The notes under the pieces were generated by a model. That model searched no databases. It saw nothing but the letters and a program-made list of their open reading frames with translations, and had not been told where the DNA came from. A stretch of DNA of 30,513 nucleotides from a virus (taxonomy: Duplodnaviria; Heunggongvirae; Uroviricota; Caudoviricetes). Position 1 is the first letter of the stretch. Every line of letters starts with the position of its first letter. This document shows positions 1,944 through 27,732 of this stretch, piece after piece. Location of the stretch: the IMG/VR virus record IMGVR_UViG_2778261535_000002, one strand, 5' to 3'. A program made the translations under genes and the position numbers.

Positions 1944-4501
1944 CGTCCACCTCCGGAGAACAGACCACCATCGCGCATCTGCCCGGTCACAACATCCATT
2001 GCCGCCTTACGGGCTACGTCATAAACAGCCTTCAGTGCCTGTGGCCCTATCTGACCGTTCGTGCCGTCGTTGTTAATCACCACATGGTTATTCTGCTCAA
2101 ACGTCCCGGACGCCTGCGAGCGGCTGTCCGCCATGCTGCCAGGTGTACCGACATAACCGCCGGTGGCATAGCCGCGCATCAGCCGGTAGAGATTTCCCAC
2201 GCCAATCCGGCTGGTTGCCTCCTTCGTGAAGACAAACTCACCACGGTGAACAATCCCCGCTGGCTCATATTTGCCGCCGGTTCCCGTAAATCCCCCGGTC
2301 GCAAAATGGAATTTCGCCGCAGCGGCCTGAATGGCTGTACCGCCTGACGCGGATGCGCCGCCACCAACAGCCACGCCAATGGCGCTGCCGATACTCCCGA
2401 CAATCCCCACCATTGCCTGCTTAAGCAGAATTTCTGTCATCATGGACAGCACGGAGCGGGTGAAGCTGCGCCAGTTCTGCTCACTGCCGGTCAGCATCGC
2501 CGCCATATTCTGTGCAATACCATCAAAGGTCTGCGTGGCTGCACTTTTTACCTGCGACATACTGTCCGTGGCGCTCTCTTCCCACTCACTCCAGCCGGAC
2601 TTCAGGCCTGCCATCCAGCTCCCGCGAAGCTGGTCTTCAGCCGCCCAGGTCTTTTTCTGCTCTGACATGACGTTATTCAGCGCCAGAGGATTATCGCCAT
2701 ACTGTTCCTTCAGGCGCTGTTCCGTGGCTTCCCGCGCTGCCTGCCGGTCAGTCAGCCCCCGGCTTTTCGCATCAATGGCGGCCCGTTTTGCCCGTTGCTG
2801 CTGTGCGAATTTATCCTCCTGCTGCGCCAGCGCGTTCAGGCGCTCCTGATACGTAACCTTGTCGCCAAGTGCAGCCAGCTGGCGTTTGTACTCCAGCGTC
2901 TCATCTTTATGCGCCAGCAGGGATTTCTCCTGTGCAGACAGCTGGCGACGTTGCGCCGCCTCCTCCAGTACCGCGAACTGACTTTCTGCCTTCCACAAAT
3001 CCCGGCGCTGCTGGCTGATTTTCTCATTCGCTCCGGCATGCTTCTCCAGCGTCCGGAGTTCTGCCTGAAGCGTCAGCAGGGCAGCATGAGCACTGTCTTC
3101 CTGACGATCGCCCGCAGACACCTTCACGCCGGACTGTTTCGGCTTTTTCAGCGTCTCTTCATAATCCTTTTTCGCCGCCGCCATCAGCGTGTTGTAATCC
3201 GCCTGCAGGATTTTCCCGTCTTTCAGTGCCTTGTTCAGTTCTTCCTGACGGGCGCTATATTTCTCCAGCGGCGTCTGCAGCCGTTCGTAAGCCTTCTGCG
3301 CCTCTTCGGTATATTTCAGCCGTGACGCTTCGGTATCGCTCTGCTGCTGCGCATTTTTGTCCTGTTGAGTCTGCTGCTCAGCCTTCTTTCGGGCGGCTTC
3401 AAGCGCAAGACGGGCCTTTTCACGATCATCCCAGTAACGCGCCCGCGCTTCATCGTTAACAAAATAATCATCCTTGCGCAGATTCCAGATGTCGTCTGCT
3501 TTCTTAAACGCAGCCTCTGCCTTAATCAGCATCTCCTGCGCGGTATCAGGACGACCAATATCCAGCACCGCATCCCACATGGATTTGAATGCCCGCGCTG
3601 TCCTGTCTGCCCAGGTCTCCAGCGTGCCCATGTTCTCTTTCAGGCGGCGGGTCTGGTCATCAAACCCTTTCGTTGCGGCCTCGTTCGCCGCCTGCAATGC
3701 CCCGGCTTCATCGCCGGAACGCTGTAACTGAGCAACATACGCAATCTGCTCCGCCGTCACGTTATGGAACTGGCGTGCCATCGCTGTCAGCCCCGACGTC
3801 GGGTCAGTGGTCAGCTTCCCGAAGGCTTCAGCGACCTTGTCCACCTCCACGCCGGATGCAGAGGAGAAACGCGCCACACTCTGGCTGATGGACGCAATCT
3901 GAGCCTCACCGCTTATCCCAGCCTTAACCAGTGCGCTGAGTGACTCGCTGGTCTGGTTAAACGTCAGCCCTGCCGCCTGCCCGGCTCTGGACAGGACCAG
4001 CATACGATCTGCCGTCAGACCCGACTGATTGCCGGAAAGGACCAGCGTTTTGTTGAAATCGGACAGGGTTGAGTTGCCCTGATACCAGGCATACGCCAGC
4101 GCACCGGTCGCCACTGCCAGCGAGGTGGCCCCGACCATCGGCAGGGTGATCGCACCGGCAAGTCCCCTGAACATGGGGATCATACCGCCGAAGGAGTCCT
4201 TCACCTGACCACCCTGTTGCAGCAGGATCAGCCACGGACTCTGCCCGCCTGCAAGCTGCGTGGCCACGTCGGTGAACTGTGCAGGAAGCATACGCATGGC
4301 GGCTTTATACTGTCCGACGGAAATCCCCGCTTTCTGTGCAGCCAGCGCCTGCCGGTTCATTGACTGTTCAACGACTGCCGCTGTTTTTTTCGCATCACTT
4401 TCCGTACCGGAAAAATGACGCCTGACTCTGGCCATCTGCTCGTCAAATCTGGCCGCATCCAGACTTAAATCAACGACCAGATCGCCTACCGGTTCAGCCA
4501 T
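1940..4501 (-). CDS. H: tail tape measure protein H
   Basis: 853 aa ORF, same length as lambda H; Ala/Gln-rich coiled-coil composition; position after G-T. Confidence 0.9.
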   Translation of the reverse strand: MAEPVGDLVVDLSLDAARFDEQMARVRRHFSGTESDAKKTAAVVEQSMNRQALAAQKAGISVGQYKAAMRMLPAQFTDVATQLAGGQSPWLILLQQGGQVKDSFGGMIPMFRGLAGAITLPMVGATSLAVATGALAYAWYQGNSTLSDFNKTLVLSGNQSGLTADRMLVLSRAGQAAGLTFNQTSESLSALVKAGISGEAQIASISQSVARFSSASGVEVDKVAEAFGKLTTDPTSGLTAMARQFHNVTAEQIAYVAQLQRSGDEAGALQAANEAATKGFDDQTRRLKENMGTLETWADRTARAFKSMWDAVLDIGRPDTAQEMLIKAEAAFKKADDIWNLRKDDYFVNDEARARYWDDREKARLALEAARKKAEQQTQQDKNAQQQSDTEASRLKYTEEAQKAYERLQTPLEKYSARQEELNKALKDGKILQADYNTLMAAAKKDYEETLKKPKQSGVKVSAGDRQEDSAHAALLTLQAELRTLEKHAGANEKISQQRRDLWKAESQFAVLEEAAQRRQLSAQEKSLLAHKDETLEYKRQLAALGDKVTYQERLNALAQQEDKFAQQQRAKRAAIDAKSRGLTDRQAAREATEQRLKEQYGDNPLALNNVMSEQKKTWAAEDQLRGSWMAGLKSGWSEWEESATDSMSQVKSAATQTFDGIAQNMAAMLTGSEQNWRSFTRSVLSMMTEILLKQAMVGIVGSIGSAIGVAVGGGASASGGTAIQAAAAKFHFATGGFTGTGGKYEPAGIVHRGEFVFTKEATSRIGVGNLYRLMRGYATGGYVGTPGSMADSRSQASGTFEQNNHVVINNDGTNGQIGPQALKAVYDVARKAAMDVVTGQMRDGGLFSGGGR

Positions 4502-6491: not shown

Positions 6492-7066
6492 CGCTTTATT
6501 ACCATTCTCAGTTGATGCTGCAGCGCATAGCCCAGCTCTTTCGGAAGACGTTCACGCCGTATCCGCTCAATATTCTGTTTAAACGCCGTGGTCAGCGGCA
6601 CCGCCATCGGGATTTTCACCACATCAATGGGGTAACGGTTTTTCCCGGCCACACGCTGCATGACATGCCAGCGGCCATTTTTCAGTTGCTGAATAAACGC
6701 GCCGGGAATACGACGGTTTCCCACCACAAGCACGCTGCCGCCACCTTTCAGGGCTGAACGCTGCCCCTTTTTACGACGCCTGCGGCGGGACAGGACAACC
6801 CGCGCGTTACCCAGCCTGATGACGGGCAAATCCCCCCTGTTAACCCTGATTCTGGCCTGCGGATTTTTAACCGTGGCCCTTTTCAGCCTGGCCCTTTCCT
6901 TTACCAGTTTCCGGCGTACCTTTGTTTCACGGGCAACCTGTGCCGCCGACTGCGATATCGCGGATGAAGCAACGCGGTTAATGGCCATTGCGGCGGCACC
7001 AGGCACCGCCGTTTTGCTGATACGGCTGAGGTTTTCAACGGCCTGCTCAAGACCTTTTATGGCCAT
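6488..7066 (-). CDS. Z: tail completion protein Z
   Basis: 192 aa ORF, same length and position as lambda Z. Confidence 0.85.
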   Translation of the reverse strand: MAIKGLEQAVENLSRISKTAVPGAAAMAINRVASSAISQSAAQVARETKVRRKLVKERARLKRATVKNPQARIRVNRGDLPVIRLGNARVVLSRRRRRKKGQRSALKGGGSVLVVGNRRIPGAFIQQLKNGRWHVMQRVAGKNRYPIDVVKIPMAVPLTTAFKQNIERIRRERLPKELGYALQHQLRMVIKR

Positions 7067-25543: not shown

Positions 25544-25753
<210 letters not shown>

Positions 25754-25841: not shown

Positions 25842-26558
<717 letters not shown>

Positions 26559-26615
26559 TAGGAAGTAAGTTTTATGTTGACGGCACAGTCAACTTGGCAT
26601 AGATTAATTAAACCA

Positions 26616-26676
26616 AGCCCAGCCCCGTTCGCAGACAATTGTTAATATCTGCATAACGGCTCTGGGCTATTTTTTT
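26616..26676 (+). terminator. long hairpin plus T7 run between cI and the downstream NYN gene
   Basis: AGCCCAG ... (nested CCGTT/AACGG and GCAGA/TCTGC pairs) ... CTGGGCT followed by ATTTTTTT. Confidence 0.55.
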
Positions 26677-26685
26677 GGGACTCTT

Positions 26686-27543
26686 ATGAAGAAAGCAGCA
26701 ATTTTAATTGATGCGGGTTTTTTCATGCAGCGTGTTCATGCTACGCATCGTAAACACTTCGCCGAGCATGAACTGACTGCGCAATGCATAATGAAAGTAA
26801 TATGGTCAATGGTTCTTTCCCATCTTAATGGAAAACGTCAATCACAAGAACGTAGGGAACCGCTTGAGCTTTATAGAATTTACTTCTATGACTGTCCACC
26901 ACTCGACATTCAAACACGCCTTCCACTTCCTGAGCCTGGCAATAAGACGCCTGGTCGCAAGAATTTCAAACTCGAAAAATCATATATTCTGAGAACGGAG
27001 CTGCATGAAGAGTTAAGAAAAACTCGAAAAACAGCCTTAAGATTAGGGAATCTTGTTGATAATAAGCGATGGCAACTAACTACATTCTCCCTTGATGCTC
27101 TGATGAAAGGAACGAAAAAATGGGATGAACTGACAAATGATGATTTTTACTATGACATCAAACAAAAACAAGTTGATATCAAGCTAGGGATGGATATCAC
27201 GACTTTAGCTTATGAAAAACTTGTTGATGTAATTGTCCTTGTTGCTGGGGACTCAGACTTTGTGCCTGCCGCCAAACACGCCAGAATTAAAGGTATTGAT
27301 TTTATTCTTGATCCACTAAGACAGAATGTTACCCCATCACTGTCAGAGCACATTGATGGAGTTCAGTCATACAGCTTGATATCAGGACTTGCCGATGCTT
27401 TACATGTTGAGCCAGACCCGGCACCTGACTGGTGGGAAGATCGAAAAAAAGGCAAGCCTAGAGGAAAAAACAATAGCGGTAAACGCAGGTATGGAAACAC
27501 TCAAGCTGAGTCTGCAAAGAAACATCAAAGAAATAAACGATAA
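26686..27543 (+). CDS. NYN/PIN-like domain protein (predicted nuclease) occupying the rexA-rexB slot
   Basis: 285 aa ORF; N-terminal AAILIDAGFF and later VDVIVLVAGDSDFVPAAKHARIKGIDFIL fit the NYN/LabA-like pattern with conserved acidic residues; Lys/Arg-rich C-terminal tail; unlike recalled RexA or RexB. Confidence 0.6.
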   Translation: MKKAAILIDAGFFMQRVHATHRKHFAEHELTAQCIMKVIWSMVLSHLNGKRQSQERREPLELYRIYFYDCPPLDIQTRLPLPEPGNKTPGRKNFKLEKSYILRTELHEELRKTRKTALRLGNLVDNKRWQLTTFSLDALMKGTKKWDELTNDDFYYDIKQKQVDIKLGMDITTLAYEKLVDVIVLVAGDSDFVPAAKHARIKGIDFILDPLRQNVTPSLSEHIDGVQSYSLISGLADALHVEPDPAPDWWEDRKKGKPRGKNNSGKRRYGNTQAESAKKHQRNKR

Positions 27544-27552
27544 TCCCATCAA

Positions 27553-27579
27553 CCCGGCCACCGAGCCGGGTTTTCTTTG
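27553..27579 (+). terminator. intrinsic terminator downstream of the NYN gene
   Basis: CCCGGC-CACCGA-GCCGGG followed by TTTTCTTTG. Confidence 0.65.
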
Positions 27580-27732
27580 CCTCACGATCGCCCCACCTAA
27601 AAACACATAACCAATTGTATTTATTTTAAAATTAATAGGTGCAACTCACTAAACAACGCAATTCTGATCTCTCGATCACCTCCCAAGCCACACAACCCTG
27701 CAAAAAATAAATCTATATAAAAAACATACAGA

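Follow-up and report, generated by a model that had tools for sequence, protein, structure and literature searches.

The window considered here is the whole 30,513-nucleotide (nt) stretch of the IMG/VR virus record IMGVR_UViG_2778261535_000002 (Caudoviricetes), a lambdoid phage whose queried segment is 100% identical to Escherichia phage ev099, and the element under study is a hairpin lying between its cI repressor gene and a gene for a NYN-domain nuclease. This enterobacterial element is a new form of a little-known leader or small RNA (sRNA) associated with NYN genes. It appears to serve the NYN gene specifically as an RNA element and to do more than set stoichiometry as a stop, and it probably represents the promoter-proximal terminator and leader RNA of a mobile NYN module, in which the RNA would control or neutralise the NYN protein. 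A preliminary description, made from the letters alone, had drawn attention to a strong hairpin with a T-run at positions 26616-26676 and had offered two alternatives, an attenuator setting the ratio of repressor to cargo or a sign that the cargo possesses its own promoter. Sequence and folding bear out the hairpin, and both alternatives look right at once; the terminator features support the first of them, but the element belongs to the NYN cassette and not to the cI/PRM operon, so that the earlier interpretation is supported in part, being right in outline and too narrow.

The hairpin comprises 53 nt and begins 58 nt past the cI stop codon. It is built from three helices, P1 (AGCCCAG, 26616-26622, with CTGGGCT, 26662-26668; five of the seven pairs are G-C), P2 (CCGTT, 26625-26629, with AACGG, 26655-26659) and P3 (GCAGA, 26631-26635, with TCTGC, 26648-26652), and its apical loop has 12 nt (CAATTGTTAATA, 26636-26647). 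An A (26669) and seven T (26670-26676) follow, and the ATG of the NYN gene lies at 26686, 10 nt beyond the U-tract. The minimum free energy (MFE) of an 85-nt RNA segment is -25.9 kcal/mol (z = -3.6), a stability equalled in none of 200 shuffles. The free-energy calculation proposed earlier as a check gives -24.0 kcal/mol for the hairpin alone, stronger than the -14.5 kcal/mol of lambda tIMM, the terminator after the NYN open reading frame (ORF); the minus-strand fold is more stable (-33.1 kcal/mol). A stable G+C-rich stem-loop is present with a U-tract within 0-2 nt of the stem, and a run of four to nine T stands 3' of the hairpin in all copies found. Judged on its sequence, the element that separates cI from its cargo has all the features of a strong intrinsic terminator. 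A simple terminator scan of the window missed it because the 12-nt loop exceeds the 8-nt loop limit of the scanner.

The boundaries of the cassette were delimited with blastn against lambda. Homology stops at 26562, 4 nt past the cI stop codon, and restarts at 27551, which corresponds to lambda 35826, the end of rexB; a 988-bp cassette containing promoter, hairpin and ORF thus takes the place of the cI-rexA spacer, rexA and rexB, and is an exact replacement of rexAB. The surrounding immunity region is of lambda type, in reversed reading (cro, cI, the 285-aa ORF, a terminator, OL/PL, then N). The terminator 3' of the NYN ORF is lambda's own tIMM and is predicted to end the NYN transcript. The comparison with lambda made in the preliminary description therefore holds for the rexAB slot; the hairpin itself is not a lambda feature, and marks a mosaic junction with lambda sequence.

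The cassette is widely distributed. Window positions 26540-27625, which include it, are found at 99.6% identity in 48 Stx2a-converting phages with a different upstream gene, and the hairpin occurs in 275 of 5426 complete Escherichia coli genomes (~5%), the O157:H7 prophage Sp1/CP-933H among them. The genes 5' of the cassette are cI-type repressors, 28-100% identical to lambda cI, or non-repressor genes, and this variety indicates that the hairpin belongs to the cargo and not to cI. Hairpin and NYN gene are also kept together in a Proteus P22-like phage, and the linkage of hairpin and NYN recurs in Streptococcus, Lactococcus, Dorea, Moraxella and Burkholderia phages and in the Staphylococcus aureus chromosome. 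On this comparative evidence, the module appears to be mobile and to consist of three parts: a sigma-70 promoter, a structured RNA with a U-tract and the NYN nuclease gene.

The possible TTGACG-17-TAGATT element noted just upstream of the hairpin was found at 26577-26605, its end having been placed slightly too far (~26610). The -35 hexamer TTGACG (26577-26582) and the -10 hexamer TAGATT (26600-26605) give nine of the 12 consensus matches across a 17-nt spacer. Among 12 otherwise diverged upstream regions, TTGAC of the -35 and three positions of the -10 (TAnnnT) never change, and spacer and discriminator vary; conserved sigma-70 hexamers with 16-18 nt spacing uphold the suggestion that the cargo has its own promoter. 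The hairpin begins 10 nt after the -10, and transcription is predicted to start at about 26611-26613, 3-5 nt before P1. With a start so close to the base of P1, the majority of transcripts from the cassette should be a ~65-nt RNA (hairpin plus U-tail) unless read-through takes place, and no upstream sequence would be left for an alternative antiterminator fold. Enterobacterial copies have a conserved (T)GGA/GGGA after the T-run. The Shine-Dalgarno (SD) sequence of NYN abuts the U-tract, with no space for a further promoter, so that NYN would be translated only from read-through RNA.

Two additional observations concern this leader. CCA (26613-26615), just 5' of P1, can pair in the MFE fold with UGG (26676-26678), at the junction of the U-tract and the NYN SD; as (A)CCA(A/G) and UGG(G/A), the two motifs are shared by the majority of enterobacterial copies, though not by the Proteus-phage type, and their pairing could occlude the NYN SD in read-through RNA. 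Moreover, a 23-codon ORF (26574-26645; ATG 26574, TAA 26643-26645 within the hairpin loop) with a good SD (AGGAAG, 26560-26565) covers the junction between lambda and cassette sequence, the promoter and the hairpin's 5' half, and a ribosome translating it on PRM read-through RNA could melt the terminator. Coupling of its translation to antitermination was rejected as a general mechanism, since the ORF is not conserved in other flank types and is probably fortuitous.

The constraint acting on the hairpin was assessed in ~50 loci, which came from scanning IMG/VR with a pattern and from two other scans, one of viral and one of metagenome sequences. The 51-nt hairpin core is the same at 51 of 51 positions across at least seven flank types; these loci are only 62-75% identical over the upstream 60 nt, 73-88% identical over the NYN coding sequence and 24-63% identical at four-fold degenerate NYN sites, the value being about one third in the most diverged, near saturation. 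The copies of Tatumella, Yersinia, Photorhabdus, Xenorhabdus and the Proteus phage keep 46-49 of the 51 positions and their changes are mostly compensatory: GCCCAG/CTGGGC of P1 becomes GCCCGG/CCGGGC, GCCTAG/CTAGGC or GCTTGG/CCAAGC, and GCAGA/TCTGC of P3 becomes GTAGA/TCTAC. In a covariation alignment of 13 sequences, to which Ewingella, Acinetobacter, Pseudomonas and Pasteurella were added, the 16 pairs are 95.7% paired, with double-sided changes in 11 of them; slid alignments are 31-40% paired and no shuffle equals the observed value. Six G-U pairs and no A-C occur in the enterobacterial plus Pseudomonas alignment, which favours an RNA of the plus strand. The asymmetric bulges and the three-helix architecture are kept through compensatory change, the orientation to promoter, T-run and NYN is constant in all loci, and the loop motif AUUGUUA is conserved across gammaproteobacteria. 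Conservation across species and covariation place the hairpin far beyond chance. A terminator requires only a stem and a U-tract; loops and bulges frozen beyond those needs suggest that something reads the sequence. As a separate observation, P1 of the beta- and gammaproteobacterial forms (loci L102, L112, L113, L120 and L128) carries a recurrent U-U or U-C mismatch at the same position (e.g., GCCCUUGG/CCCUUGGGC), which suggests a conserved non-canonical pair.

The protein encoded by the cargo gene contains a NYN domain (PF01936; 36.8 bits against the Pfam cut-off of 24.2) and matches at full length phrog_5783, a family of unknown function (E 1.5e-119). Six aspartates (D9, D69, D164, D189, D191 and D224), the GDSDF motif included, are invariant in 30 homologues. 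PADLOC returned weak partial matches to HEC-09 (E 2e-4) and NYN (E 1.4e-3), and a sequence search found no relative in the PDB. Examples exist in which the gene has decayed and promoter and hairpin are intact: in O157:H7 Sakai Sp1/CP-933H the ORF is truncated to a 129-aa N-terminal remnant (ECs_0273; L135 2424-2813), and in the Stx2a phage Stx2_EH0505 a second, internally deleted NYN copy (L001 ~6630-6900) lies 3.5 kb from the intact one.

The association of an RNA of this kind with NYN genes extends well beyond enterobacteria. In a genome scan based on the NYN alignment, with one genome per species, ~50 of 80 loci show one long interrupted hairpin with a T-rich run after it, placed 6-60 nt ahead of the NYN start; TTGAC and a -10 usually stand 5' of it. 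Carriers include Pseudomonas, Acinetobacter, Pasteurella, Halomonas, Cupriavidus, Burkholderia, Acidovorax and a Moraxella phage, as well as Acidobacteriaceae, Bacteroidales and Elusimicrobiales; Firmicutes too have an equivalent element before orthologous NYN genes. The distant forms share the pattern 5'-GCYCNNGG-CAGUA(A/C)G...GCCGA(G/A/C)CC-CNNGRGC-U(n), with the AGUA/GAA motif in beta- and other proteobacterial, acidobacterial and Firmicute forms. Rfam scans of 30 NYN loci gave no family at its cut-off and, below threshold, TEG147 alone, in distant forms: full-length matches to RF03535 (gathering cut-off 56.1 bits) were obtained in Acidovorax (32 bits), Streptococcus phage Javan84 (52.6), Lactococcus phage Bacchus (38.2) and a Dorea phage (36.2). 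The S. aureus NYN homologue (P0165, phrog_5783) is preceded by an RF03535 match of 86.6 bits, which stops 18 nt short of the start codon and has a promoter of its own (TTGAAA/TGATAATAT).

In S. aureus HG003, Teg147 has been described as a bona fide sRNA of 60 nt, of unusually high G+C content and no known function (PMC5826253), with a predicted sarcin-ricin motif in its internal loop (PMC13085918); the literature examined describes neither its function nor a link with NYN. The RNA comprising promoter-driven hairpin and U-tract appears to be a general companion of the phrog_5783 NYN family, and the hairpin of the window is probably a functional counterpart and divergent relative of Teg147, not a member of RF03535. 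Intermediates exist in Proteus penneri and Marinobacterium (L055, L056), which combine a group-B-like P1 and junction with a gamma-type loop (CAUUYGUUAA) and score weakly with both models. The S. aureus pair is on a genomic island, with a GmrSD_N-domain gene (type IV restriction-like) on one side of it and the ssl superantigen-like cluster on the other (L132 1-536, 6652-8690).

Taken together, these elements outline a mechanism. The hairpin, acting as a terminator, would end PRM and PRE transcripts just past cI; the module promoter would fire a few nucleotides before the first helix, and the same hairpin would stop most module transcripts as an RNA of ~60-65 nt. Only read-through would reach the NYN start codon, so that NYN would be kept low and the small RNA in excess, the terminated ~65-nt species presumably accumulating. 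Some partner would recognise the sequence of this RNA, the likeliest candidate being the NYN protein, with autoregulation or neutralisation as the outcome. The existence of such a partner is suggested by an RNA frozen in its loops beside drifted synonymous sites and by equivalent RNAs in many phyla; how efficiently the hairpin terminates, where transcription starts and whether NYN binds the RNA are inferred here from sequence.

Several results weigh against this proposal. The tables of Hfq-bound sRNAs of O157 Sakai obtained by crosslinking (Hfq-CRAC; Tree et al. 2014) contain none near 3018xx or at the Sp1 site. Rfam scans of the window assigned the E. coli-type hairpin to no family, with no RF03535 match at E<=1 in 3.5 kb nor at E<=10 in 101 nt, and a model (R2) built from 19 Teg147-like and proteobacterial forms gives E. 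coli-type copies 11.5-14.7 bits (E 0.5-4), which is not significant; homology to Teg147 would rest on position, architecture and the intermediates L055 and L056, not on score. HEC-09, a related NYN candidate, gave no phage defence in tests (10.1101/2024.01.29.577857). Finally, orphan copies suggest that the hairpin can serve as a portable plain terminator without NYN.

Three such orphans were found, all other occurrences (>100) being NYN-linked. The first, on IMG/VR contig L038 (lambdoid late region, 3297-3699), has the identical 51-nt core ~240 nt after a PR'-like promoter (TTGATT-16-TATATT, 3297-3324) that follows Q, with tRNA-Arg(UCU) 8 nt further on and the lysis genes after it. This place corresponds to tR', so the hairpin would form the end of a 6S/StxS-like RNA made from it. 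The others, in the virulent Chaseviridae BSBP01 and 2KOFFS, are a 98% identical copy with one internal-loop C missing, which replaces to the base the tRNA-Ser(GCU) of the relatives SA91KD, TH24 and FXie and stands in the sense direction, 5' of a small ORF and the spanins (L002 2501-2562; L003 3-63; L129 664-755). They may, speculatively, be captured decoys. The idea that orphans in virulent phages prove a decoy role was weakened, since one orphan sits at tR' of a temperate lambdoid phage and the Chaseviridae copy simply replaces a tRNA gene.

A rival reading, possible but open to doubt, makes the ~65-nt RNA an antitoxin or self-immunity factor that neutralises a toxic NYN RNase in trans. The cassette would then be a type III-like, non-repeat toxin-antitoxin (TA) or abortive-infection system in the place of rexAB; once an infecting phage shut off transcription, the RNA would run down and NYN would be released, and the orphans would be captured decoys. 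The order of promoter, RNA, terminator and nuclease gene is that of ToxIN and AbiF/RCd22, the RNA should exceed NYN mRNA, and constraint at the nucleotide level suits an RNA-protein interface; the module also stands at defence or moron hot spots (after cI; in phiE202 beside an integrase and a toxin-antitoxin pair; in S. aureus beside a GmrSD-like gene), and its orphans are in sense orientation in a lambdoid late region and two virulent Chaseviridae. These points are countered by the single RNA copy per locus, with no tandem repeats, by the negative HEC-09 result and a toxicity of NYN that is only putative, and by the rarity of the orphans (~3 in >100), each where a terminator or tRNA is expected. 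Decayed NYN genes that keep the RNA (Sakai Sp1 and the second L001 copy) favour neither side. The most far-reaching version is tentative and, we believe, unlikely: the hairpin would be the enterobacterial form of a pan-bacterial RNA partner (the Teg147 class) acting as a single-hairpin antitoxin or self-immunity RNA, the cassette a new repeat-less type III-like abortive-infection module in the rexAB slot, and the orphans at lambdoid tR' and in Chaseviridae captured anti-defence decoys.

Against each of the remaining explanations stand, taken together, the strict linkage to NYN, the fixed orientation, the frozen loops and the compensatory changes in the stems. It is improbable that the hairpin is a plain insulating terminator that stops cI/PRM transcription and stabilises the 3' end of cI mRNA, its identity among loci being due to recent recombination at the module junction. 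Its canonical terminator features would suit this role, as would the orphans at tR' and in the place of a tRNA before the Chaseviridae lysis genes; however, loops and bulges are invariant where flanks and NYN synonymous sites have strongly diverged, compensatory changes appear in more distant taxa, the element tracks NYN and not cI across phyla, and a conserved promoter fires straight into it.

Still less credible is a base-pairing sRNA whose 12-nt loop targets host or phage mRNAs in the manner of StxS, AsxR or svsR. A promoter of its own, a Rho-independent terminator with a U7 tail, the conserved AUUGUUA of the loop and the listing of Teg147 among bona fide sRNAs (PMC5826253) would agree with it, but host-specific targets are hard to reconcile with an RNA so strictly tied to a single gene family in different phyla, and the RNA is absent from the Hfq-crosslinked sRNAs of O157 Sakai. 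Pairing of the loop with NYN codons (AAUUG/GCA-AUU in E. coli; AAUAG/GCU-AUU in the Proteus phage) was rejected because its covariation fails in Photorhabdus, Xenorhabdus and Yersinia, and in L019 and L044. The sRNA svsR itself, a co293-like sRNA embedded in cI of prophage NC-SV (PMC12803456), was judged unrelated by position, lying inside cI and not after it.

An imperfect palindrome working at the DNA level, as operator, cruciform or module-exchange hotspot, is very unlikely: the more stable minus-strand fold, the location exactly at a mosaic junction and the movement of this small piece alone into unrelated phages are set against its constant orientation to promoter, T-run and NYN in every locus, the tolerance of G-U and never of A-C, the asymmetric bulges and three-helix architecture kept by compensatory change, and an S. 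aureus counterpart that is a detected RNA. As to a riboswitch-like terminator whose internal loops bind a small molecule and tune read-through into NYN, conserved unpaired nucleotides within the stem and a cross-phyla spread upstream of one gene family do recall orphan riboswitch candidates, but a predicted start at the foot of P1 would leave no space for a competing antiterminator fold and the internal loop differs fully between enterobacterial (CC/CU) and Teg147-like (AGUA/GAA) forms, unlike one conserved ligand pocket, so we give it hardly any credence.

Table 1. Location of the cassette, its parts and the adjoining features in the window.
Feature	Position	Strand	Basis
cro	25544-25744	-	ORF list
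cI repressor gene	25845-26558	+	ORF list; 97.3% identical to lambda 38084-37223
Promoter-hairpin-NYN cassette	26563-27550	+	blastn against lambda
Cassette promoter	26577-26605	+	Consensus scan and comparison of 12 upstream regions
Three-helix hairpin	26616-26668	+	Folding, covariation
A plus T7, U-tract of the intrinsic terminator	26669-26676	+	Sequence
GGGACTCTT: weak Shine-Dalgarno (GGGA) and spacer of the NYN gene	26677-26685	+	Sequence
NYN-domain nuclease gene, 285 aa	26686-27543	+	Pfam PF01936, phrog_5783
Lambda tIMM terminator (context, outside the cassette)	27551-27580	+	Terminator scan (27551-27572), lambda homology

Some further observations were made around other NYN genes. A subgroup of shorter NYN proteins (228-aa match; Dyella, Rhodanobacter, Frateuria; L058-L101) is without the long hairpin; its genes have a -10 (TAGAAT/TAAAAT) and then a short G+C-rich hairpin with a CCCAUCC-type loop, which may be a reduced version of the NYN-leader RNA, and the CAUCC motif also appears in apical loops of the Halomonas, Dyella L079 and Burkholderia forms. 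A C4 antisense RNA with a1/b1 targets is found in Moraxella phage Mcat4 (L127 3270-3470) and Pseudomonas yamanorum (L050 5509-5708), within ~0.1-2.7 kb on the 3' side of NYN, and an isrK-like RNA also in Mcat4; the C4/isrK-type RNAs that lie beside the NYN module are P1/P7-type immunity RNAs.

Among the systems with which the module can be compared, Teg147 (sRNA85, srn_0960; RF03535) resembles the window element in its size (~60 nt), own promoter, long interrupted hairpin, U-tail and place immediately upstream of an orthologous phrog_5783 NYN gene. The window hairpin differs in having three Watson-Crick helices with CC/CU and C/AU loops, P2 (CCGUU/AACGG) being an extra Watson-Crick helix where Teg147-like forms have the AGUA/GAA internal loop, and in its 12-nt apical loop (CAAUUGUUAAUA against CAUCAUA). 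With this comparison, an orphan sRNA of S. aureus gains a genomic partner.

Type III TA systems (ToxIN, CptIN, TenpIN) are often phage- or plasmid-borne and act in abortive infection, and their terminator sets the excess of RNA over toxin. Like the NYN module, they consist of a promoter, an RNA, a Rho-independent terminator and an (endoribo)nuclease gene, the predicted terminator of the window lying 10 nt before the NYN start. In contrast to their tandem direct repeats, which the toxin processes, the NYN module has a single hairpin that is itself the terminator: no tandem RNA repeats were found in any locus searched with models R1 and R2, each having one copy per NYN gene. The proteins differ as well, with a NYN/PIN-like fold here and ToxN/AbiQ-like toxins there. 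The closest mechanistic precedent appears to be AbiF (Abi_2) with RCd22 (abiF RNA motif), which likewise places a conserved structured RNA directly upstream of a prophage protein gene; in a C. difficile prophage, this upstream RNA is reported to lower transcription in cis and to neutralise the toxic protein in trans by direct binding (10.1101/2025.04.15.648962). AbiF is Abi_2/HEPN-like, unlike the NYN protein, and the RNA motifs differ too.

Within lambdoid phages, tR' with 6S RNA or StxS is said to combine a constitutive promoter with a close terminator, giving a short and abundant RNA by-product; the NYN leader likewise has a promoter closely followed by a terminator, and one orphan hairpin (L038) occupies tR' itself. 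The two differ in that tR' is read through by Q-modified polymerase, whereas PRM, PRE and the cassette promoter are without nut or qut sites; to our knowledge, no antiterminator exists for the NYN leader. Lambdoid morons share with the NYN cassette the arrangement of an own promoter plus cargo. The cargo in the slot after cI typically has an exclusion or defence function (rexAB), and BstA of BTP1 is reportedly another defence cargo there. If the identification is right, an anonymous terminator becomes a testable RNA-protein module, and a NYN gene of unknown function, common in Shiga-toxin and other lambdoid prophages and present in many phyla, always arrives with its own tightly constrained small RNA; at the site of rexAB, a classic place for exclusion functions, this would suggest a nuclease under RNA control. 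The PRM-cI-rexA-rexB-tIMM operon of lambda has its cargo in the corresponding slot between cI and tIMM, but rexAB are co-transcribed with cI across a 112-nt spacer that has no terminator; in the window, provided that the hairpin terminates as predicted, the cargo would be transcriptionally uncoupled from PRM and the repressor.

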